Of a DNA stretch of 64,000 bases, positions 7,091 to 39,600 are shown piece after piece. A program made the position numbers and the translations under genes. The stretch lies in IMG/VR virus record IMGVR_UViG_2724679539_000005, positions 12,292 to 76,291 of that record; one strand, written 5' to 3'. The DNA is from a virus (lineage: Duplodnaviria; Heunggongvirae; Uroviricota; Caudoviricetes). The notes under the pieces are model-generated. The model made no database searches, had not been told where the DNA came from, and saw nothing but the letters and a program-made list of their open reading frames with translations. The first letter of the stretch is position 1. Every line of letters starts with the position of its first letter.

Positions 7091-8251
7091 TTACCTCGCA
7101 TTTAAGTAAACTACGTTCTCCTCTTGTGCCGTATTTGTGCCATTGCGACTTATAATCGCATCGATTTTGCTCGCGTGCTCGGTGAGATGCCCAGCTGAAA
7201 GGTGGGCGTATCTTTGAACCATTTCGAGAGTTTCCCATCCTCCCATCTCTTTAAGTGCAAGAAGAGAGACACCGGACTGAACCAGCCAGCTTGCCCAGGT
7301 ATGCCTCAGGTCATGGAAGCGGAAGTTGCTAATGCCTGCCCGCTTTAACGCTCCCTTCCATGCCTTGTTGCTGTCGGTTCTCATCTTCCTTACCGCTGCT
7401 GTTTTTGTTCCGTCGCTTCGGTAGGCAGGTTTGGTGTGGACAAATACCCATCTCTTATGGAGCCCCTGCTGTTTTCTTAATATCTGGCATGCGGTTTCGT
7501 TAAGAGGAACTCCGATCGCATTGCCAGCTTTTGTTTCATCAGGGTGCATCCATGCCATTTTCTTATCCAGATCGACCTGTGACCACTCAAGGTCTGTAAC
7601 GTTGGAACGACGAAGGCCTGTCGTGATTGCAAACATGACCACAGGGAAGAAATGAGGAGCAATTTCTGCAAACAGGCGCTTCGATTCCTCCTCTGTAAGC
7701 CATCTGATTCGTCCATTCTTAACGCGTGGTGTTGATATTTTGGGCGCCCTGTCAAGCCATCCCCATTCAACAGCCATATTGAGAATAGCGCGAAGTATTG
7801 CCAGATGCCGCGTCTTCGTTCCTTTGCTTGCCAGCTTTGGTTTATACTCCGGCACTGGCTTGCCAAGCCGCAAACACCTATCCCGGCTCATCTCCCAGTT
7901 CAGGCGATGGCGGCGGTTTTCCATCCCGTCTACCGCCTCCATTATTTTTTCTGTTGTTATGTCAGAGAGAATGGTTTCTCTGAAGTGCAACATCCAGAAC
8001 GATATAATGCTCTTGTCATCATCAATGGACTTCTTATCCGATTTCTCACGCAGCCACCGTATGCAGGCTTCCTTGAATAGCTTTTTCGGTGATTCCCCGA
8101 GATTTTTTACTCTCCACGCTTCTGCTTTCAGACGATCGTGAAGTTCTTGCGCTTGCCTCTTGTCCGATGTTTCAAGAGAGCGTCTAACTCTTGATCCATC
8201 TGGCGCGACGAAATCGCAGTGCCATGTGCCACCGCGCAGTTTGATTGACAT
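7091..8251 (-). CDS. int: tyrosine integrase (P4/CP4-type)
   Basis: C-terminal catalytic region with [13 protein letters not shown] and the conserved Tyr region (VQRYAHL); 386 aa; adjacent to the att core. Confidence 0.9.
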   Translation of the reverse strand: MSIKLRGGTWHCDFVAPDGSRVRRSLETSDKRQAQELHDRLKAEAWRVKNLGESPKKLFKEACIRWLREKSDKKSIDDDKSIISFWMLHFRETILSDITTEKIMEAVDGMENRRHRLNWEMSRDRCLRLGKPVPEYKPKLASKGTKTRHLAILRAILNMAVEWGWLDRAPKISTPRVKNGRIRWLTEEESKRLFAEIAPHFFPVVMFAITTGLRRSNVTDLEWSQVDLDKKMAWMHPDETKAGNAIGVPLNETACQILRKQQGLHKRWVFVHTKPAYRSDGTKTAAVRKMRTDSNKAWKGALKRAGISNFRFHDLRHTWASWLVQSGVSLLALKEMGGWETLEMVQRYAHLSAGHLTEHASKIDAIISRNGTNTAQEENVVYLNAR

Positions 8252-12027: not shown

Positions 12028-12438
12028 TTAGTGATTCAGGCCGTTACCGCGTCCGTCGAGAAAAACTTCCACGAGCAAATCACGGGTATAAGTGCGCTCG
12101 ATGCCGCGATGCAGATAAAGCCGTCCGCGTAAATTAGCTGATGCAGTCCAGGTACCATCTTTGTGTTTGACCAGCATTCCTGGCATGACCGCACCTCGAT
12201 TAACGGTCTGCGTTCCATAATGTTGATGAACCATAAAAACTCCTGCCCGTAAGCTGGGCTGCTGAACATATAGAGACTTCTGCGCGTATTCAGGCGGTGG
12301 ATGGCCGCCGGTTGTCATAACTAAGCCGCCTCGTTGAAGCGACTGAGGTATGAGGTGTTGAGTTGATTTCAGCTGGTCACACCGACGTTCACGCGTCCGT
12401 TTCACCCCTCGCACTCCCCGGAGCCTGCCGAAATTCAA
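12028..12438 (-). CDS. hypothetical early-left protein with Arg-rich N-terminus (possible N-like antiterminator or Kil-position gene)
   Basis: First ORF downstream of the putative OL/PL; N-terminal [10 protein letters not shown] motif resembles an arginine-rich RNA-binding motif. Assignment not established. Confidence 0.3.
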
Positions 12439-12877: not shown

Positions 12878-13924
12878 TCAGTTATCCTTTAATAACCTAT
12901 ACAGTTTTGTAGGGGTACATCCTGAGGATATTGTTAAGTTCGTAGCACGCCTTTTCCGCCCACCATCGTATAAACGAAAACCAGTAGTAGACGAATTTTC
13001 TGCGTCAAAAACTATAGACAGTATAACGTCCCCAGACTTTTTTTGCCATTCATATGTGCCGTTAGTTGGTTTTGTCATCTGTAGACGCCAGTCAAGAACG
13101 CCATCACTTATAGCTGAGAGATCGTTTAGTACGTCTAGTACGGATTGATATCTTTCATTTGGATCTACATGAATGCATTTGTTTACTATTGTTATCAATT
13201 TTTTATGTATGTGGGAAGGATACTCTTTTAATGGATAGGAGCCATTAATTATCGACTCTCTGAGTTGTTCAATCGTTCTAAATGCAGATCTTTCTCTTTC
13301 AAAATTATCATATCCAACACACATTCTATATATGGTTAATCCTGCCTGATATATGTCATATGTGAAATTATAATCATTTGTTGATAAAGAAAAATATTCC
13401 GGTGGCACATGAAAATGATATCCAAACTCAGGCGCAGCTCTCGATTCCTCATTGACTAACTGAGACAATCCAAAGTCAGATAGCATGGCCTCATTTCTGT
13501 TTGATATCATGATGTTATTAGGTTTTATATCAAAATGCATAAGACCTTTTGAGTGTATATGATAAAGCCCACTTAAAAATTGAATAGAATACCGTATTAT
13601 CTCCCTGCTCGTAAGATTAATCTTTTTTATTAATTGGTTTAGCGAACCATTATGATAAAATGGCATGGCTATATAGATATTGCTCTCACATTGAGCAGCA
13701 TACTGAACTTGCACAATATTTGGATGTGCATGTTTATAGAGAAGCCTTGCTTCATTAAAGTAGTCGTCGTGGTTAGTGTTTTCTTTTTTTTCTATTTCTT
13801 TAATCACCAAGTCATGAGCTAGGTGTCTGTCATGAGCCAGATATACTTTTGAAAAACAACCCTGTTCTTCTAGATCACGAATCCATTCGAATGCTACATC
13901 AGCTCTTTTGTATGGAGTCAGCAT
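12878..13924 (-). CDS. eukaryotic-like Ser/Thr protein kinase (348 aa)
   Basis: Kinase motifs: VIK (beta3 Lys), HFDIKPNN (catalytic loop), DFG, PPE; very AT-rich. Confidence 0.85.
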   Translation of the reverse strand: MLTPYKRADVAFEWIRDLEEQGCFSKVYLAHDRHLAHDLVIKEIEKKENTNHDDYFNEARLLYKHAHPNIVQVQYAAQCESNIYIAMPFYHNGSLNQLIKKINLTSREIIRYSIQFLSGLYHIHSKGLMHFDIKPNNIMISNRNEAMLSDFGLSQLVNEESRAAPEFGYHFHVPPEYFSLSTNDYNFTYDIYQAGLTIYRMCVGYDNFERERSAFRTIEQLRESIINGSYPLKEYPSHIHKKLITIVNKCIHVDPNERYQSVLDVLNDLSAISDGVLDWRLQMTKPTNGTYEWQKKSGDVILSIVFDAENSSTTGFRLYDGGRKRRATNLTISSGCTPTKLYRLLKDN

Positions 13925-18428: not shown

Positions 18429-19847
18429 TTAGAAAATAATGTTTGCTATATCCGAGATAGCATTTAAAGAACCTCTGTGGTCACTTCCTGTTTTAGGTAA
18501 AATATAGGAATATCGAGGGTCTTCATTATATGTTAACTTCCAGTGTTTTCCATCGCTTGACGCACTGAAACCTAAGTCCTTTAAATTTCTTTGTGTTGCG
18601 CTATCCATGCTTCTGTAACCTGTTAAAGTCCTTTTAAGTAATTGGCGGCGACTCTCGGTTTCTTTATTGTATTCATTATTGGCAATTAGGGATGATAAGA
18701 TATGGTAGCTTCTACCAAATTCATTTTTATTTTTTATGGCAGTTTTTAGCGCGTCAATAATTATATTTTTGATTTCTCCATCAAAAAAATCAGTCTCTTC
18801 ACCAGCATTAAGCACAATGCTTCCTTGGGCTGAAGCTTGTGATTGAAGAGTGCGTACTCTGTGCTCTAAAGAGGAGATCTTATGCTTAAGATCTTCTATT
18901 TGGTCATCTTTCGCAACATTATCGGCTTCGTAAAGCGCCATCAGTTCGCGTGTGTATTCTCCTCTTTCTTTGAGTGAGTTAATAGAGTCTTTCGTTTTTC
19001 TGGTTTGTATCTCACTCCATCCACTATCTGAGACAGGAGCCATTGTAGTCGTAGCTCTTACAACATCATCAAATAACTCATCTTCAAATTCTTTTGCGGT
19101 TTTCTCACCACGGCGATAAAAACTGATATTTTGACCCCGTGGCCAATAGATACCAACAGCACCAGCATAGGCATTTTTAGCATTTGTCTCATTTTTTAGC
19201 TTAATAGAAAATAGTCTATTGCTAGGCTCAATTAATACATGTGCTAATCCGCATACCTTTCTTGCAAGGCGTTCTGGGATGATATTGTGAGCATGTTCAT
19301 TAAAAAAATACTTGGAGCTAACGTATATTATTGGTAGTCTGTTGTCAGTTTCACCATTTATAACTTTAGCTGCTATATTTAAATGTTCATCAGTATCATC
19401 TAAGGAATGAGGTTCGACTGACACCTTGAAAATATCATCAAGACCACCAGAAAATTTATCAATCAATCTCATAACAACTAATGGTTTCTTAGGTTGCGGG
19501 GCTAGATAAGCTGCATCTTGGCTTACAACGCTAGATTCCACCTGAATCCACATGGTATCAGTTTTGAGATTTTTATTAATTGAAATATCTGTTACCCATT
19601 TGTGTGGCTCAGATATTTTCGAATACCTAAAACAGCCTAAACTAGTATCTTTGTTTTTATAAGTTATTATATCAATTCTTTCATTTTTAGACTCTATGAA
19701 GTACTCCTCGCTTTTATAATCACATACTAATTGTGCTGGAATAAAAGTTGTATGTGGTGAGTCGTTTACCCAAGAAAAACATTCATTAAAGATCTCAGCT
19801 AGAGATGTGGAGTTTGAAACATAAAAACCAGTTGAGAAATATTTCAT
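18429..19847 (-). CDS. uncharacterised 472-aa protein (nin-region moron on the antisense strand)
   Basis: Long clean ORF, strongly AT-rich, opposite to the phage early-right operon; coiled-coil segment (EDLKHKISSLEHRVRTLQ); no family recognised. Confidence 0.7.
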   Translation of the reverse strand: MKYFSTGFYVSNSTSLAEIFNECFSWVNDSPHTTFIPAQLVCDYKSEEYFIESKNERIDIITYKNKDTSLGCFRYSKISEPHKWVTDISINKNLKTDTMWIQVESSVVSQDAAYLAPQPKKPLVVMRLIDKFSGGLDDIFKVSVEPHSLDDTDEHLNIAAKVINGETDNRLPIIYVSSKYFFNEHAHNIIPERLARKVCGLAHVLIEPSNRLFSIKLKNETNAKNAYAGAVGIYWPRGQNISFYRRGEKTAKEFEDELFDDVVRATTTMAPVSDSGWSEIQTRKTKDSINSLKERGEYTRELMALYEADNVAKDDQIEDLKHKISSLEHRVRTLQSQASAQGSIVLNAGEETDFFDGEIKNIIIDALKTAIKNKNEFGRSYHILSSLIANNEYNKETESRRQLLKRTLTGYRSMDSATQRNLKDLGFSASSDGKHWKLTYNEDPRYSYILPKTGSDHRGSLNAISDIANIIF

Positions 19848-20092: not shown

Positions 20093-20507
20093 TCGGTGTT
20101 TTACTTCGACAGCCAGAATTGGGAGTCTCTATTCGTCTGGCGGCTAAAGGTGATATGGAAATCGTTATGTTTTGGCCTGAGGTAGTTGTAACTGTTGTAG
20201 CAGCTATGGCTGTGATCATCATGGTGTCCATTTACTGGGGTTGACGACATGATTTATCCGGCGCTATATTCTGTGCGTTGCCGCAAAATCGGCACACGGG
20301 ATTGGCGTCCCGGGATACTACTCAACGCATACCGCGTTAAGCGGTTTTTTTGTGCGCTAAGCACGGCTATGCCCAAATTATGGTGGGCTGTGTGAGGGCT
20401 TCTTCGGAAGCGCCGGGTTTGAGTAGCCGGTTACGCCAACCTTACACAGTTCACCACCAGTCGATTGGCGTCGTTGGTGGTGATGGTTAACCTGATGAGG
20501 TGATACT

Positions 20508-21116
20508 ATGACTACTCAATTAGCATTCCACAAAACGACGTTTACCCCGATTTGCCACAATAACAGAATTTGGCTTACTGCCACTGAAGTTGGTTTAGCA
20601 CTGGAATATGCGGACGATAAAGCAGTTCAGCGCATTTACTCTCGGCACTCAGATGAATTCACAGATATGATGACAAGGGTGGTCAAAGTGACCACCCCTC
20701 GTGGAATGCAGGAGTCTCGAGTATTTAGCCTTCGCGGAGCCCATTTGATCGCCATGTTTGCTCGTACTCCTGTGGCCAAAGAATTCCGCCGCTGGGTTCT
20801 GGATATTCTCGATCGAGAAGTTCAACAATCCCCAATCACAAAACAATTCACTGATAACGAACTTTGCACACTCGCCTGGTTATGGCGAGCAAGTGATACG
20901 ATGTTAACCGCCTGCCAGAACGTTACGCCCCTTCTTCAGGTCGCAGAGCATCGCGAAGCAGGTAGATTCACTTCAATCGAACAAGAATATCCTCGGATAC
21001 TCAACAGGGCGCGAGAAATCCTTGCCAGAGAAACGGCGCATGTAAAATTCCAACCGTGGCAGGATGATAAGTGGAGTCGTGTGTTACCATATTTCCGTCA
21101 GAATCTGTTGCAATAA
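20508..21116 (+). CDS. Bro-N / KilA-N-like domain protein (antirepressor/Roi-like)
   Basis: N-terminal pattern IWLTATEVGLALEY...RVFSLRGAHLIAMFARTPVAKEFRRWVLD typical of Bro-N family DNA-binding proteins. Confidence 0.55.
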   Translation: MTTQLAFHKTTFTPICHNNRIWLTATEVGLALEYADDKAVQRIYSRHSDEFTDMMTRVVKVTTPRGMQESRVFSLRGAHLIAMFARTPVAKEFRRWVLDILDREVQQSPITKQFTDNELCTLAWLWRASDTMLTACQNVTPLLQVAEHREAGRFTSIEQEYPRILNRAREILARETAHVKFQPWQDDKWSRVLPYFRQNLLQ

Positions 21117-23530: not shown

Positions 23531-23923
23531 TTGTGGAGTAAGTTGATGCGTGATATTCAGATGGTTCTTGAGCGTTGGGGAGCGTGGGCGGCTAATAATC
23601 ATGAAGATGTGACCTGGTCGTCCATTGCCGCCGGTTTTAAGGGATTAATTACTTCAAAAGTAAAATCTCGCCCGCAATGTTGTGACGATGACGCGATGAT
23701 CATTTGCGGGTGCATGGCCCGTCTGAAAAAGAACAACAGCGATTTGCATGATTTATTGGTGGACTATTATGTCGGCGGCATGACTTTTATGGCGCTTGCA
23801 CGTAAGCATGGGCGATCTGATTGTTGGGTTGGCAGGATGCTCCAGAAAGCTGAGGGCGTAGTGGAGGGTATGCTGATGGTGTTGGATCTCCGATTGGAGA
23901 TGGATGCTGATTGTTCGAAATAA
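23531..23923 (+). CDS. late-gene antiterminator Q (21/82-type)
   Basis: About 127-130 aa Cys-containing protein in the Q position, followed by a promoter-like sequence and terminator hairpin. Confidence 0.7.
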
Positions 23924-24022
23924 TTAAAGGAAAAGTTGCTGTCTGATTGTCATTAGTCTAATATTTTAAATGTTGGAATCGCAACGTAGTTATTATCATA
24001 TAACAGCTTGTTTCCTGATTTA

Positions 24023-24050
24023 GCCAGCCTCCCCAAAGGCTGGTTTTTTC
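24023..24050 (+). terminator. putative tR' terminator downstream of Q (qut/PR' region)
   Basis: Stem CCAGCCT/AGGCTGG followed by TTTTTT; upstream TTGCTG-17-TAATAT promoter-like sequence. Confidence 0.5.
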
Positions 24051-24077
24051 TAATAAGTATTATTTCGAGTAGGGATT

Positions 24078-24602
24078 TTATTGTTTAACCCATAATAATT
24101 CATTGACATTGAATCCCAACTTTTGAGCGGTTCGCACATAGTCTGCTTTTACTTTATCTGGAATAGTTGGGGTCCTTGCCAGAATCCATAGGTATTCTCT
24201 GTTCGGACCACTGACAAGAGCATACTTATACTTATCATCCAGTTTGATTACATTATAGCCACCATAGAAGGGGCCAAAAAACGAAACCTTCAACGCTGCA
24301 GTTTTAGTATCTCCAGTAAAGTATGCTTTACCTTCGCTCTCGCTCCATTTATTTTTCGTTGGATCGTATCCACGGTTAAGTACACGAATCCCTCCGTCGT
24401 TCCGTTTTCCATAAGTAGCGCTGACCTGTTCCAGACCACGTTCGAACCGGTTCTCGAGGCGAGCTATTTCATACCATTTTCCGAGGTAGCGGTTGGCGTC
24501 AAAATTTGTAATCGGCTGCACACCTTTAGGTGGTGTCGGGGCCTTACATGCTATAAGAGTGAAAGAGAGTGCAATGCCAGTCAACACAGGCCATAACTTC
24601 AT
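24078..24602 (-). CDS. blc: outer-membrane lipocalin Blc
   Basis: 174 aa; lipobox (LIAC); lipocalin signature NFDANRYLGKWYEIARL. Confidence 0.85.
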   Translation of the reverse strand: MKLWPVLTGIALSFTLIACKAPTPPKGVQPITNFDANRYLGKWYEIARLENRFERGLEQVSATYGKRNDGGIRVLNRGYDPTKNKWSESEGKAYFTGDTKTAALKVSFFGPFYGGYNVIKLDDKYKYALVSGPNREYLWILARTPTIPDKVKADYVRTAQKLGFNVNELLWVKQ

Positions 24603-24794
24603 AATAAATCCTGTACTTTTGATAGTTGAGAGTAAGTATGAAAGATAGATGATTACGACCGATCACTTAAAGAACTTTCATACTATATTAGGAATAGTCC
24701 ATAACAGGAAAATTGTCAGTGATGACGCCAGAAAGGCAATTTATTCCATGCACTACACAGTTTATGTGTTAATGAATTAGTCAAGGGGGAGAAT

Positions 24795-25754
24795 ATGATA
24801 AAAAAACCTGTGATTGGAATCAGCGGTTGTTTGGCCGGTTCTGCTGTTCGTTTTGATGGTGGTCACAAAAGAGCTGACTTTTTAATGGACAAATTAGTGG
24901 AATGGGTAACATTCAGACCAGTATGTCCAGAAATGGCTATAGGGCTGCCAGTTCCGCGTCCTGCTCTACGTCTTGTGCGCTCGACGCAAGGGAATATACG
25001 GATGTGTTTCAGCCACGACCAGAATGAGGATGTGACAGAGAGAATGACAGAGTTTAGTCGTTCTTATATGGACAAATTAAAGGATGTATCGGGATTTGTG
25101 GTTTGTGCTAAATCTCCCAGCTGTGGCATGGAGCGCGTGCGTGTCTATGATGAAAATGGTAATCGAGGTCGTAAAGATGGAGTGGGACTATTTACGAGCA
25201 CTTTGATGGAAAAGTTTTCCTGGCTACCGGTTGAAGAGGATGGGCGATTACATGATCCAGTGCTTCGTGAGAATTTTGTTGAAAGAGTTTTTGCTTTGCA
25301 TGAGCTCAATCACCTTTACAAGGAGAAATTATCAAGAAGAGAGTTATTAGCTTTTCATAGTCGTTATAAGCTTCAGTTGTTGGCGCATAGTCAGGCAGGC
25401 TATAAAGATATGGGACCATTTGTGGCTGCAATACACGAGTGGGCGGACCTTGAATCATACTTTGAGGTGTATCGTGATAAGCTGATGGCGATTCTCAGAA
25501 AACCTGCATCACGTAAAAATCACACGAATGTGCTGATGCATATACAGGGGTATTTTAGTAACTACTTAAGTACACGCCAGCGTAAAGAGTTGAGCGAGGT
25601 TATACTTAACTATCGTTCTGGCACATTACCTCTTCTTGCGCCGTTGACTCTGCTGAAGCATTATCTGGGTGAGTATCCTAATGATTACTTGCTTACACAG
25701 AATTACTTCGATCCCTATCCGGACGAACTGGCTCTAAGACTGATGGTAAATTAA
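24795..25754 (+). CDS. DUF523/DUF1722-like two-domain protein (319 aa)
   Basis: N-terminal GISGCLAG...FDGG pattern and overall size recalled as the DUF523-DUF1722 fusion family; not verified. Confidence 0.5.
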   Translation: MIKKPVIGISGCLAGSAVRFDGGHKRADFLMDKLVEWVTFRPVCPEMAIGLPVPRPALRLVRSTQGNIRMCFSHDQNEDVTERMTEFSRSYMDKLKDVSGFVVCAKSPSCGMERVRVYDENGNRGRKDGVGLFTSTLMEKFSWLPVEEDGRLHDPVLRENFVERVFALHELNHLYKEKLSRRELLAFHSRYKLQLLAHSQAGYKDMGPFVAAIHEWADLESYFEVYRDKLMAILRKPASRKNHTNVLMHIQGYFSNYLSTRQRKELSEVILNYRSGTLPLLAPLTLLKHYLGEYPNDYLLTQNYFDPYPDELALRLMVN

Positions 25755-26094
25755 TTGTATGCGATATCATCCAAAAGGATGAGTTCCTGCATGCAGGATA
25801 TTTACAATCGTAAAAACTACACTATGATACCCAGAGTGTCAGTTTGTATAAAAACTCTGTTTACGCTGAAGAAACCATTGAGATGCAACTTAAAGTTGGT
25901 AAACATGCCAGTCAAAATATAATATTATGATTCCACGCAGCTATATATAATATAACAGATTGGTTTAATAATTTGTCTTTGTGAGTTAAATACATAATTT
26001 TATACTTGTGATGCAATGAGATTTTCCTTATTGTTGAACTGGCGAATATTGATTTTCCACCTATACTTACCTGGTGTAACCTCAATGATATCAG

Positions 26095-26835
26095 GTGGAT
26101 AATATGCCATACATATGTTCTATCATTTTGGTGTTGAACTCGTTTGATGCCCGAATTGGTAAAGAAGATATTTTGTTTAAAAAGGGAAGTGCTGTTCTCA
26201 TTGATTACAATTTAAAAGATTTTTTTTCATCAAATATAGATCATGTAATGATCGTAGATGTTGAAGAGAAAACAGTTAATGATTTCTTTAAAAGCAACAC
26301 ACTCTCACCTTTTTCTGTAAGAAGGTTTTATCCGGCATACTTGATGGTGGAATGTGAAGATTTTTCATTGTTAAAGAACTTGATTGCATGCTTGAATTGT
26401 GATGGCAGAACTGTAGATTTTGTTAGAAATCAAATATCACTTGCATGTCTTGCTATCTTATCTTCAGAGAAAATAGTGCAAAGTTTTTTATTTGGATGTC
26501 TTAATAGTTTAGGAAGTAAAGTTAAGGCTATTATTCACACGGATATATCTGCAGCATGGAGACTTTGTGATATATCTTCAAGACTGTATCTGAGTGAAAG
26601 TCTGTTAAAAAGAAAATTAAAGCACGAAGGCTTATCATTTAGTAAGTTAATTCTTGAAGAGCGAATGGTGATGGCGGAAAGGTTATTAAGCTACAATTTA
26701 TATTCTGTTGGAAAAGTTGCTGAGATATGCGGTTATGGAAACACGTCATATTTTGTAAGTGTTTTCAGAAGATATTTTGGTGTTCCTCCCCATCAATATT
26801 CATCAAGATTTTTTTTAGAAAAAGACATGATGTAA
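26095..26835 (+). CDS. AraC-family transcriptional regulator (AppY/GadX-like)
   Basis: C-terminal AraC HTH (GYGNTSYFVSVFRRYFGVPPHQY); strongly AT-rich. Confidence 0.8.
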   Translation: MDNMPYICSIILVLNSFDARIGKEDILFKKGSAVLIDYNLKDFFSSNIDHVMIVDVEEKTVNDFFKSNTLSPFSVRRFYPAYLMVECEDFSLLKNLIACLNCDGRTVDFVRNQISLACLAILSSEKIVQSFLFGCLNSLGSKVKAIIHTDISAAWRLCDISSRLYLSESLLKRKLKHEGLSFSKLILEERMVMAERLLSYNLYSVGKVAEICGYGNTSYFVSVFRRYFGVPPHQYSSRFFLEKDMM

Positions 26836-27023
26836 CGTGATGCGTTTTAATGATTTTGTAATTTTCGTATTTGATAATTGTATGATGCTTTCAGCTACGC
26901 CAGAATAATCGCTGGCGTTTTTCTTTTTGAATAGATGTTCAAGCCTTACGCTAATGTAACTTCTATACCTTTCCTCTTCGTTCCGAACCGTGTACACCAT
27001 CCGTTATTTGCGGAGGTGAGGCT

Positions 27024-27239
27024 ATGAAATCCATGGATAAGTTAACAACGGGCATTGCCTACGGCACCTCCGCAGGCAGTGCTGGCTACTGGTTTTTACA
27101 GCTGCTCGATAAAGTCACGCCCTCACAGTGGGCAGCAATAGGTGTGCTGGGTAGCTTGGTATTTGGCCTGCTGACGTACCTGACAAACCTTTATTTCAAG
27201 ATTAAAGAAGATAAGCGCAAGGCTGCGAGAGGTGAATAA
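27024..27239 (+). CDS. class II holin (phage 21 S-like pinholin)
   Basis: 71 aa, two TM segments, charged C-terminus; very similar to DLP12 EssD / S21 as recalled. Confidence 0.85.
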
Positions 27240-37483: not shown

Positions 37484-38093
37484 CATTACAGGGGATTTGC
37501 AACGCAGACTGGCAAATCTGGTACGACGCGGTGTGATTCATTCTGTCCGGCATGATGGTATCCCCAAATGCCGGGTTGATCTGGGCGATATCATCACGAC
37601 CTGGCTGCCGCTGTGTCAGGGTTTTTCTGGCGCAAACCGGGCTGATTCGAATCCTTATGCCGTCGGTGATGCGGTGACAGTGTTGTCGGAGGCCGGAGAG
37701 TTAAACAACGGGCGGGTGTTTCCTGGCTGGAACACCGGGAAATTACCCGTGCCGGAGGGCAGCGACAGCGAACATATTACCCGTTACAGCGACGGCACAG
37801 AGATCCGGTATGACCGGGCAGCTCATGCCCTGACGATCACCCTGACCGAAGGAGGCACTTACAAAATCACCGGTAAGGGTACGCTTGATGGTCCGGTTGA
37901 AATCACCGATACCCTGACTGTACAGGGGAAAACGCAGATTAACGCCGATACGACGGTGAAGGGTAATATTGGTGCCTCTGCAGAAATTACCGACAAAACC
38001 GGCAGTATGAGCGGGATCCGCAACATCTTTAACGAGCACAACCACCCCGGCGACAGTGGCGGGAGTACGGATAAACCTAATCAGAAAATGTGA
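37476..38093 (+). CDS. gpV-like baseplate spike/assembly protein
   Basis: C-terminal HNHPGDSGGST motif resembles P2 gpV (HKHPGDSGGTT) as recalled. Confidence 0.55.
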   Translation: MSDITGDLQRRLANLVRRGVIHSVRHDGIPKCRVDLGDIITTWLPLCQGFSGANRADSNPYAVGDAVTVLSEAGELNNGRVFPGWNTGKLPVPEGSDSEHITRYSDGTEIRYDRAAHALTITLTEGGTYKITGKGTLDGPVEITDTLTVQGKTQINADTTVKGNIGASAEITDKTGSMSGIRNIFNEHNHPGDSGGSTDKPNQKM

Positions 38094-38130
38094 CCTGCTG
38101 CGGCAGGTTTTTTTATGGCTGGAGAAAGAC

Positions 38131-39600
38131 ATGTCTCAGTTACATGGTGTTGAAACAATTGAACTGACCTCGGGAACTGTGGCGGTGACCACTATCCAGA
38201 CGGCTATTATCGGTCTGGTGGGCACGGCACCGGAGTCGTCTGCCGGGAGTGCGGCAGCGGTCACCACCGGGACGCCGATTCTGGATAACGTTCTGAACTT
38301 CACAGCAAAGGAGAGGGGCCGGGCTGGCAATGTTATCCAGGTGGACGCGGTGGCGGCGGTACCAGATACGGAAAGCCCGCAGGCTGTTAACACATCGGCA
38401 TCCTGGGATGACGTTACGCACAAACTGACGGTGACACTGGGCTGTGATGAGCAGGGGGTGATCACGGCGCGACCTGCTGATGTGGTCAGTGTGGTCAATG
38501 CGCTGGATGGCGTCAAAGTTCAGGCCGAAGGCAGTGGCGAGGGGCTGTTGGTAACGTTCAGTGTAAAGCTGGAAGGGGGCGAAGATGAGCCTTTTCCGTT
38601 AAATACGCCTGTGGCTGTGGCGGGCACCGCGCTCATTAATCGTCTGGGAGACAAGGGGACTCTCAAACAGGCGCTGACAGAGATTAATGATCAGCGTAAT
38701 GCGCTGACAGTGGTGGTGCGGGTGGCTGATGAAACTGACGGGGCAAAAAAACGGGCAGCCATACTGAAAGGGATTGGACTTCTGTCATCAGCAAAATCCA
38801 TTACCACGTATCAGCCACGTATTGTGATTGCGCCGGGATTCAGTGAGGACGATGCGGTCGGGAAAGCCCTGGAAACGGTGGCCGGGAAATTACGCGCGGT
38901 GGCTTATGTTGACTGTGCTTCCGGAGCAACGTTGCAGGAGGTGGTACAGCGCCGTCAGTCCTATGGTGCCCGTACTGAACTGTTGCGACCGCGTGTTCAG
39001 GCTGCCGATGCGGATGGCCAGTTAGTGTATCGCCCTTACTCTGCTTTTGCCGCCGGATTACGTGCCCGTATCGACTACGAAAAGGGCTGGTGGTGGAGCA
39101 AATCGAACCAGGACATCAACAATATCCTCGGAGTGGAGCAGATCGACGAATTTATTCTCGGGGATGAAAACTGCGATGCGAACCTGCTCAACATGCAGAA
39201 CGTATCCACCATTATCCGTCGTGCGGGCTTTAAACACTGGGGAAACCGTCTGTGCGCAACCGATCCGCAGTGGCGTTTTGAATCCGTACGACGTACAGCA
39301 GATGTTATCGAGGACAGCATTCAGGAAACCATGCTGGAGTATGTTGACCGTCCGCTGGATCGCGAAAATGCCGATGACATTATCGGCACCATTAATGCCT
39401 ATATGCGACAACTGGTCGGACTGGGCGCCATCTTCGGTGGTCGGGCCTGGCTGGATGAAGAACTTAATACCGCAGAGAGCATGGCGGCAGGTGTTCTGTA
39501 TATCAACTATGACTTTGGACCGAAATCGCCGACTGAACTTATCAGTCTGCGCGTCCGGGTGAATAATAACTATGCGCTTGAGGAGATGCTGGCAGCATGA
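38131..39600 (+). CDS. contractile tail sheath protein
   Basis: About 490 aa, located before the tube gene. Confidence 0.8.
   Translation: MSQLHGVETIELTSGTVAVTTIQTAIIGLVGTAPESSAGSAAAVTTGTPILDNVLNFTAKERGRAGNVIQVDAVAAVPDTESPQAVNTSASWDDVTHKLTVTLGCDEQGVITARPADVVSVVNALDGVKVQAEGSGEGLLVTFSVKLEGGEDEPFPLNTPVAVAGTALINRLGDKGTLKQALTEINDQRNALTVVVRVADETDGAKKRAAILKGIGLLSSAKSITTYQPRIVIAPGFSEDDAVGKALETVAGKLRAVAYVDCASGATLQEVVQRRQSYGARTELLRPRVQAADADGQLVYRPYSAFAAGLRARIDYEKGWWWSKSNQDINNILGVEQIDEFILGDENCDANLLNMQNVSTIIRRAGFKHWGNRLCATDPQWRFESVRRTADVIEDSIQETMLEYVDRPLDRENADDIIGTINAYMRQLVGLGAIFGGRAWLDEELNTAESMAAGVLYINYDFGPKSPTELISLRVRVNNNYALEEMLAA

Follow-up and report, generated by a model that had tools for sequence, protein, structure and literature searches.

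The cargo between Q and the holin

We describe here the genes carried between the late antiterminator gene Q and the first lysis gene, S, of a prophage contained in a 64,000-nucleotide (nt) stretch of viral DNA (IMG/VR record IMGVR_UViG_2724679539_000005, positions 12,292 to 76,291; hereafter the window, to which all coordinates refer). According to the open reading frame (ORF) calls, three intact genes occupy the interval between Q and the S21-type holin: blc2, on the minus strand, for a lipocalin, and, on the plus strand, rudS, for a protein of the tRNA 4-thiouridine (s4U) desulfidase family, and araC, for a regulator of the AraC/XylS family. The interpretation that we favour, and regard as probable, is that the Q-S moron slot holds a composite cargo, made up of two separately acquired units, the divergent blc2-rudS pair and araC, with the expression roles proposed below. 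The features on which the argument draws are the following (aa, amino acids).

23546..23923, plus strand: late antiterminator Q, QuuD/phage 21-82 family PF06530 (Pfam, 1e-50)
23906..27012, no strand assigned: 3.1-kb segment of replaceable cargo, by comparison with the K-12 prophage DLP12, with the last Q codons, the pR'/tR' region and the three genes (blastn break points against locus L005)
23936..23964, plus strand: candidate late promoter pR', TTGCTG, 17-nt spacer, TAATAT (found by eye, below the scanner threshold)
24022..24053, plus strand: tR'-like intrinsic terminator, 9-bp G+C-rich stem and U6 tail (hairpin 24022-24045, -15.6 kcal/mol, z -4.05)
24078..24602, minus strand: blc2, outer-membrane lipocalin lipoprotein, 174 aa, antisense to the late transcript
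24603..24794, no strand assigned: divergent blc2-rudS intergenic region, 192 bp, similar in size to that of Citrobacter sedlakii but not conserved in sequence
24795..25754, plus strand: rudS, TudS(DUF523)-DUF1722 [4Fe-4S] tRNA 4-thiouridine desulfidase family, 319 aa, sense to the late transcript
25755..26081, no strand assigned: AT-rich spacer, about 31-33% GC, cassette-specific, with several promoter-like sites
26104..26835, plus strand: araC, orphan AraC/XylS regulator of the GadW/YdeO/AppY/PatE clade, 243 aa, 32% GC, Shine-Dalgarno AGGTGG at 26092-26097
26220..26227, plus strand: homopolymer run T8 within araC, hot spot for frameshifts (tract lengths in 79 loci)
26897..26929, plus strand: intrinsic terminator between araC and the holin gene, U-rich tail (hairpin 26897-26918, -11.3 kcal/mol, z -2.98)
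27024..27239, plus strand: S21-type holin, first lysis gene and right-hand neighbour of the cargo (ORF and Pfam)

The start of Q is placed at TTG 23531 in the ORF list and at ATG 23546 in RefSeq, and the latter was adopted. Q is about 95% identical in nucleotide sequence to quuD of DLP12 (blastn); the homology ends at 23905, with 18 nt to go to the stop codon of Q, and restarts at 27013, 11 nt before the ATG of the holin gene. Between these break points, K-12 DLP12 carries nmpC, on the minus strand and split by IS5, and in many sequenced lambdoid phage genomes only the flanks match, with an OmpD/NmpC porin gene in the slot. The content of the segment varies: nmpC/ompD in DLP12 and in ev099-type phages, araC alone in another locus (L074). 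On the far side of the cargo the order is P21-type holin, lysozyme, Rz and a minus-strand bor gene (Pfam). An earlier note on this DNA had placed blc, a two-domain protein of 319 residues and an AT-rich AraC gene between Q/tR' and the holin, in the slot that holds stx in Shiga-toxin phages; the ORFs and the Pfam matches, whose scores are well beyond chance, bear out this gene content, and the DLP12 break points together with the nmpC/ompD alternatives confirm the nature of the slot. However, the three genes, which the note counted as three morons, do not appear to be independent ones: blc2 and rudS are best seen as one captured pair, and araC as a separate module.

In base composition, araC (32.0% GC; 26% at third codon positions) differs clearly from its phage neighbours (48% for Q, the holin and R), whereas the difference is marginal for blc2 and rudS (43-44%); the window as a whole has 46% GC. 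Each cargo protein falls in a separate PHROGs family, all three labelled 'unknown function', and none of the three matched the PADLOC defence-system models. An Rfam scan of 20-30 kb found nothing credible in the cassette, its sole matches being the upstream c4 and isrK elements, and no tRNA genes, as found in the slots of Shiga toxin (Stx) phages, occur anywhere in the window. A Q allele in common with Stx phages was also considered, and rejected, as these phages match merely 62 to 290 nt of the window Q.

RudS, a predicted tRNA 4-thiouridine desulfidase

The product of rudS combines a 2-thiouracil desulfurase/DUF523 domain (PF04463, residues 7-149, 3.1e-40) with a DUF1722 domain (PF08349, residues 192-309, 1.9e-40). 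Fusions of TudS and DUF1722 received the name RudS in 2024, when they were shown to take 4-thiouridine out of tRNA (Jamontas et al., NAR 2024, PMC11417400); the base is converted back to uridine, and DUF1722 is the proposed tRNA-binding module (PMC11417400). The window protein is 93% identical, without gaps and with 21 substitutions, to gp66 of phage 1H12 (H3V29_gp66), the RudS_vir of that study. The residues whose mutation abolished the activity of the Pseudomonas enzyme RudS_KT, C17, C49, C114, E51, S111, S113 and R60 (PMC11417400), correspond to C12, C44, C110, E46, S107, S109 and R55 of the window protein, all of them invariant across 10 phage and chromosomal homologues. Cys12, Cys44 and Cys110 are the ligands listed for the [4Fe-4S] cluster of RudS_vir (PMC11417400, Table 1), and the window protein can be aligned with the TudS structure 6Z92 at C12 and at the CPE and PRP motifs. 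Many alignment columns are also invariant in the DUF1722 domain. Because of the high identity to RudS_vir and the invariance of the essential residues, the window protein is, by homology, a RudS, and removal of s4U is the activity predicted for it from its phage orthologue. The 'DUF523/DUF1722-like' label of the earlier note was thus the right family, but it overlooked that RudS is a characterised enzyme and that a 93%-identical phage orthologue had already been assayed. In RefSeq, the cassette rudS of E. coli is called a 'YbgA family protein'; database annotation of the gene trails its published function.

When produced in E. coli, RudS_vir lowered the s4U content of tRNA, and its lag on 4-thiouracil was shorter than that of any other RudS assayed (PMC11417400). 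Overexpression of RudS_KT removed s4U and reduced the growth delay caused by UVA (PMC11417400). No tested RudS supported growth as TudS did, but all lowered tRNA s4U (PMC11417400). The gene in the window and its relatives seem to be under constraint: in a comparison of the window with the 1H12 lineage (synonymous divergence, dS, 0.19-0.37), the ratio of nonsynonymous to synonymous substitution (dN/dS) is 0.10 over the whole of rudS, and the values for rudS and blc2 are comparable with those of the holin and lysozyme genes. Moreover, rudS is intact in 60 of 62 loci assessable within a contig, and both disrupted copies lie on contigs that look error-ridden.

Blc2 and the origin of the blc2-rudS pair

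The product of blc2 is a lipocalin (Lipocalin_2, PF08212, E=1.4e-43, Pfam) that scores above the curated NCBIfam cutoff for Blc (NF007786, 314.6 against 267 bits) and has E. coli Blc structures as its closest matches in the PDB. It begins with a lipoprotein signal, MKLWPVLTGIALSFTLIAC, followed by K, in which the lipobox L-I-A-C spans residues 16-19, with Lys, and not Asp, at position +2. It is 59% identical to the chromosomal Blc of K-12 (b4149), which has a different genomic context. The dN/dS of blc2 against 1H12 is 0.08, and the gene is intact in 54 of the 58 loci that could be assessed; two of the four copies disrupted within a contig are on the error-ridden-looking contigs. A protein identical to the window Blc save for one residue, the prophage-type WP_000780581.1, was quantified by proteomics in carbapenem-resistant E. 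coli, where it was 2.0-fold and 3.0-fold up with 15 min of meropenem. Therefore, at least a blc2-type gene is expressed in a lysogen.

The relatives of rudS in bacterial chromosomes suggest where the pair came from. When a single genome was scanned for each species, 64 loci were obtained, with chromosomal rudS homologues of 66-77% identity in Citrobacter, Kluyvera, Enterobacter, Leclercia, Klebsiella and Pectobacterium, among others. About 40 of the 64 have a divergent upstream Blc gene, whose product is 78-82% identical to the window Blc (69-72% in two). In Citrobacter sedlakii, blc and rudS are immediate neighbours separated by 187-188 bp, against 192 bp in the window. Nucleotide similarity between the window and the chromosomal loci is restricted to the two coding regions; no shared operator or promoter was found in the blc2-rudS intergenic DNA, the phage and Citrobacter versions of which give no meaningful alignment. 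The araC gene was absent from all of these chromosomal loci. Since rudS so often stands beside a divergent Blc gene in chromosomes, and never with araC, the blc2-rudS pair is, as far as can be read from these comparisons, an old divergent arrangement captured as a whole from an enterobacterial chromosome. In Enterobacter (L022, 4663-5898) a MlrA/BluR-like MerR regulator gene and a transthyretin/HIUase-like gene separate blc2 and rudS; both are missing from the phage version. These two genes may point to regulation of the ancestral pair.

An orphan AraC/XylS regulator

The araC ORF was listed as 26095-26835, coding for 246 aa; the ATG at 26104 is the likelier start, because AGGTGG precedes it and because it is the RefSeq start in a genome that is 99.8% identical. 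The C-terminal region of the protein has a double helix-turn-helix (HTH_18, 1.9e-14; HTH_AraC, 2.1e-11; Pfam) and matches the DNA-binding domain of GadX (3MKL, 4e-20), and residues 1-236 align with the YdeO model (1e-37), including the N-terminal domain of this subgroup. Full-length BLASTP matches are to ECs_0287 of strain Sakai (53% identity), GadW (34%), AppY (32%) and YdeO (32%); in the case of GadX, 41% identity is confined to the C-terminal domain. An N-terminal M..CSVI motif and near-identical helix-turn-helix segments are common to the window protein, ECs_0287, GadW, AppY and YdeO. The relationship to Rns, CsvR and ToxT is more distant, Rns and CsvR matching in the C-terminal region only. 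The scores lie far below the NCBIfam equivalog cutoffs (130 against 348 bits for YdeO and 84.5 against 500 for GadX), and the names given to the protein in databases are generic. It is then not YdeO, GadX or PatE itself, judging by these scores and identities, but an unstudied paralogue. The alignment with AppY, GadX and Rns that the earlier note had proposed supports the comparison with AppY over the full length, and with GadX and Rns in the C-terminal region alone. Of the precedents that it cited, AppY and GadX make for a reasonable analogy given the full-length relatives GadW, AppY and YdeO, whereas PerA, like other Rns-type regulators, is distant and similar at the C-terminus only.

ECs_0287 is the sole AraC-type regulator annotated in the Sakai prophage Sp1. 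In the literature, PatE is described as z0321 in OI-8/CP-933H, Z0321 as RpoS-dependent, and ECs0287 as induced upon entry into stationary phase. We take ECs_0287 to be PatE because of its prophage position, the RpoS dependence of Z0321 and the stationary-phase induction of ECs0287. AppY, PatE and PsrB are reported to act on host acid-resistance genes and acid-fitness-island promoters (gadE, hdeA).

Relatives of araC are found in two kinds of place. Two clades of paralogues, 64% and 56% identical, stand alone between Q and an S21-type holin gene, and the Q proteins ahead of them belong to other families, PF03589 and PF06323. In loci with araC only, homology to the window begins at 26082-26085, 19-22 nt before the araC ATG. 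The PatE-like clades, on the other hand, lie after the tail-fibre assembly gene at the right end of the prophage, near attR, as appY does in DLP12. The AraC family makes use of both classic moron slots of lambdoid prophages and is a recurrent lambdoid cargo. In view of the GC content (32% against 43-44%), the lone paralogues in the Q-S slot and the start of homology close to the ATG, the sequences define araC as a module separate from the blc2-rudS pair, having a ribosome-binding site and a terminator of its own. In the cassette, the pair follows tR' and precedes an araC-holin unit, which is found by itself in other places.

Integrity of araC and the T8 run

araC is disrupted within the contig in 22 of 70 loci, against 2 of 62 for rudS and 4 of 58 for blc2 (these are counts of database contigs, in which clonal repeats and some assembly errors are possible). 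Part of this is due to the T8 run at 26220-26227: in 79 loci chosen by the flanking pattern alone, the set from which these counts were also taken, the run has eight T residues in 64, seven in 10, six in three and nine in two, so that 19% are out of frame. Insertion sequence (IS) insertions and deletions are found among the lesions as well. Two loci, L247 and L250, look error-ridden, and the contig name of L250 gives a coverage of 1.4x. The dN/dS of araC, 0.26, is the highest in the cassette. We conclude that araC is the least stable part of the cargo, with between a fifth and a third of the copies in nature inactivated, and that it appears dispensable. The earlier note had placed its main interest on the regulator; it had the family right, but chose the part of the cargo that is most often inactivated.

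We also considered that the T8 run could be a contingency locus under selection. Because sister alleles interrupt the run, it is read here as a mutational hot spot; a maintained switch was rejected as the leading reading, and phase variation is the less likely one. A second T8 run, at 26809-26816 near the 3' end of araC, may explain an allele of 237 aa with a different C-terminus.

Prevalence of the cassette

Of 5426 complete E. coli genomes, 999 (about 18%) have at least 80% of the cassette. Twelve sequenced phage genomes carry it too, among them those of the 1H12/Lambda_ev group and of IdasGreatGrand, a phage obtained from swamp mud; at least some of the 12 come from isolated virions. It was found on 126 IMG/VR contigs, and the order Q-blc(-)-rudS-araC-holin was complete in 74 of the 80 examined. 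E. coli was said to lack both TudS and RudS (PMC11417400). That statement is corrected by our counts, according to which some 18% of complete genomes have a prophage copy of rudS, and the tRNA s4U levels and near-UV responses of strains may vary owing to a prophage. The frameshifted copies of araC, in turn, bear on the prediction of acid-resistance regulation from genome sequences.

In several E. coli genomes (H30, H31 and H42-H45) IS1, IS3, IS911 or IS200/IS605 lies inside the cassette, and the prophage with the best-matching cassette (H26) is cut off by IS1 right after Rz. Two short contigs binned in a 'Candidatus Nanosynbacter' metagenome-assembled genome (L060 and L065) have the cassette at 94-100% protein identity; this assignment is almost certainly a binning error.

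Expression of the cargo and its possible roles

The stretch after Q has TTG..T and ATTA motifs in partial agreement with DLP12. The tR'-like hairpin also lies just beyond the blc2 stop codon when read on the minus strand, where it lacks a U tract (-13.3 kcal/mol). A terminator scan and folding found no convincing terminator in the rudS-araC spacer (25755..26081), and a hairpin with a T run, comparable to that at 26897, lies 3' of araC in L074. Promoter-like hits in the cassette, all at the level of consensus matches, number 14, which is no excess over shuffled sequence (11.5 +/- 3.9). The prophage is presumably inducible by the SOS response, because its repressor is LexA-like, with an S24 autopeptidase domain.

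On the lambda paradigm, this layout suggests the following sequence of events. Being sense to the late transcript and downstream of tR', rudS would be at most weakly transcribed in the lysogen and strongly after induction, by a terminator-resistant polymerase. Q-modified polymerase would pass both terminators, so that rudS and araC would be co-expressed with the lysis genes upon induction. In the lysogen, the terminator at 26897 would shield the cell from holin expression driven by the cargo and would insulate the lysis genes. As blc2 is antisense to the late transcript, it would be expressed only from a promoter of its own, in the lysogen; a role as an outer-membrane lipoprotein of the lysogenic stage agrees with the proteomics of the near-identical protein. 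By analogy with PatE, PsrB and AppY, AraC, when expressed, would most likely activate host promoters silenced by H-NS, such as those of gadE and hdeA.

Several points weigh against this interpretation. The pR' promoter and the promoters of the cargo are guesses at the level of the consensus, and the timing of expression is taken over from lambda by analogy. Although RudS_vir was well expressed, no other RudS in the assays was as weak on tRNA (PMC11417400), and the effect on the UVA growth delay was demonstrated for RudS_KT only (PMC11417400). The equation of ECs_0287 with PatE/Z0321 is presumed from position and annotation, and, at 32-53% identity and with scores below the cutoffs, targets shared with the characterised relatives are a guess. 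Finally, the counts of intact and broken copies carry the limits of database contigs.

The same observations can be read in other ways. RudS could be a tool of the lytic cycle and not a gene for lysogenic conversion, made late after UV irradiation and SOS induction, which erases s4U8 and so averts near-UV cross-linking of tRNA and the stringent growth delay that would hold back the making of late phage proteins. The position and orientation of rudS with respect to pR'/tR', the S24 autopeptidase repressor, which implies SOS induction, the loss of s4U and lessened UVA delay upon RudS overexpression, and the intactness of rudS in essentially all copies, those in sequenced phage genomes included, are all consistent with this. 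However, the tRNA activity of RudS_vir is low, and the chromosomal homologues serve the cell and not a phage; we think it rather unlikely as a separate account, and it is in any event compatible with the composite cargo that we favour rather than exclusive of it. A doubtful proposition is that the phage RudS acts mainly on free 4-thiouracil or 4-thio-UMP, as stand-alone TudS does, in salvage or detoxification. That RudS_vir should give the shortest lag on 4-thiouracil and yet the weakest tRNA desulfidation, with soluble protein being high, would fit, as would the full conservation of the catalytic TudS core. But the conserved DUF1722 domain, with its proposed role in tRNA binding, is retained, the dN/dS value given above is that of the entire gene, and the assays in which every RudS lowered tRNA s4U and none equalled TudS in supporting growth point the other way. 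Speculatively, and against our own expectation, RudS made by read-through under Q could serve as a late tRNA 'eraser' that strips s4U8, disarms the near-UV sensor and sustains translation in sunlight, with the T8 run perhaps acting as a switch of the host regulator. If true, about one fifth of E. coli strains would bear a phage-borne epitranscriptome editor in the Stx toxin slot.

As for araC, a regulator of the phage cycle, acting on lysis or late genes or on blc2 and rudS instead of on host genes, might be expected from the fact that three diverged clades (that of the window, P0013 and P0015) come directly before an S21-type holin gene and after Q proteins of three families. We consider this improbable: the tail-fibre/attR end, where close relatives are found, has no holin gene in the vicinity, AppY, PatE and PsrB target host acid-resistance genes, the blc2-rudS pair exists without araC, a terminator separates araC from the holin gene, and frameshifted copies are common in contigs of prophages that may or may not be viable, which tells against an essential phage role. 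That all three genes are inert hitch-hikers with no present function was already disfavoured and seems to us most improbable. The frequent breakage of araC, the IS insertions into the cassette in several genomes and the lack of defence-system matches could be taken to suggest it, but the dN/dS values of 0.08-0.26, at the dS given above, the intact state of nearly all rudS and blc2 copies, the detection of the Blc protein and the enzymatic activity of the RudS orthologue do not support such a scenario.

The composite cargo, the reading that we retain, does not overturn current understanding; its components are of known kinds, namely a published phage RudS orthologue, a Blc paralogue and a regulator of the PatE/AppY/GadW type. 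What is new here is the two-unit origin, the recurrence of AraC in the slot, the insulating terminator, the prevalence in E. coli and the fragility of araC relative to rudS and blc2. With it, an enzyme that de-modifies tRNA is located in the cargo slot that lambdoid phages induce most strongly, and whether phages edit host tRNA modification upon induction becomes testable with 1H12 and IdasGreatGrand.

The surrounding prophage

The prophage begins with the integrase gene and lies in a variable region of the E. coli genome near the pao genes.

7091-8251: integrase, start of the prophage

After the integrase come the S24-type repressor, a Ser/Thr kinase, O/P-like replication genes, c4/isrK with an antirepressor gene and a DLP12-like nin region, and then Q, the cargo, the lysis genes, the terminase and head genes and a contractile-tail module. 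The kinase gene beside the repressor (12878-13924, minus strand) codes for a eukaryote-like protein (Pkinase, 1.2e-46) reminiscent of the Stk of 933W and HK97-type phages. The segment at 20264-21116 has a P1/P7-style c4 antisense RNA (74.8 bits), an isrK-like small RNA (58.7 bits) and an a1/b1 target element, followed by a Bro-N/P22AR-type antirepressor gene (20508-21116), and looks like an antirepressor control module within a lambdoid early region. Between replication and nin, an orphan gene on the minus strand (18429-19847, 472 aa) has no Pfam domain and a weak match to the PADLOC model HEC-07 (1e-9); DLP12 has ybcK at the equivalent place, and the orphan could be a defence or exclusion gene. 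The tail-sheath gene at 38056-39600 implies that the tail is contractile, although the early, Q and lysis regions are of lambdoid, DLP12-like type; different types of module are thus combined in the prophage as a mosaic.

Comparison with known systems

The closest known relative of the cargo is that of phage 1H12, whose RudS_vir has the same 319 aa, TudS and DUF1722 domains, cluster cysteines and catalytic Glu, Ser, Ser and Arg residues as the window protein, and whose gene likewise has blc on one side and araC on the other in the Q-S slot. The RudS paper (PMC11417400) does not go into the setting of the gene in the phage, how common it is in E. coli or its link with blc. Apart from that paper, a search of the literature by accession number or keywords returned one proteomics table that concerns the cassette, and nothing on the expression of rudS or araC or on reprogramming of the host by this regulator.

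The chromosomal Blc of the ampC-blc-gdx locus shares with the window protein the Lipocalin_2 fold, the lipobox cysteine and a Blc score above the cutoff. The two are nevertheless paralogues, and the window gene is not orthologous to that chromosomal gene; its orthologue is the second Blc gene, the neighbour of rudS in Enterobacter, Leclercia and Citrobacter sedlakii (80-82% identity).

PatE, AppY, GadW and YdeO are, like the window AraC, orphan AraC/XylS regulators of about 245 aa, coded for by AT-rich genes and having the M..CSVI motif and a similar double helix-turn-helix; PatE and PsrA/PsrB, of EHEC O157:H7, and AppY are also prophage-borne. The genes for PatE and AppY, however, are at the right end of their prophages, while the window araC is in the Q-S slot.

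Stx phages carry stx in the Q-S slot. The window cargo occupies the same type of slot, and the parallel is one of general knowledge of the slot and not of shared sequence. With the nmpC/ompD genes of DLP12-type prophages, in contrast, the cargo shares both the slot and the flanking Q-family and S21-type holin sequences. Like blc2, nmpC is a minus-strand gene for an outer-membrane protein that is expressed in the lysogen; in Perceval, a prophage of strain LF82 with NmpC in the same slot, it exceeds the prophage's local background of transcription about 10-fold in lysogeny. The window slot differs from the nmpC and stx slots in having three genes, from two sources, one of which is an eraser of an RNA modification placed sense to the late transcript.

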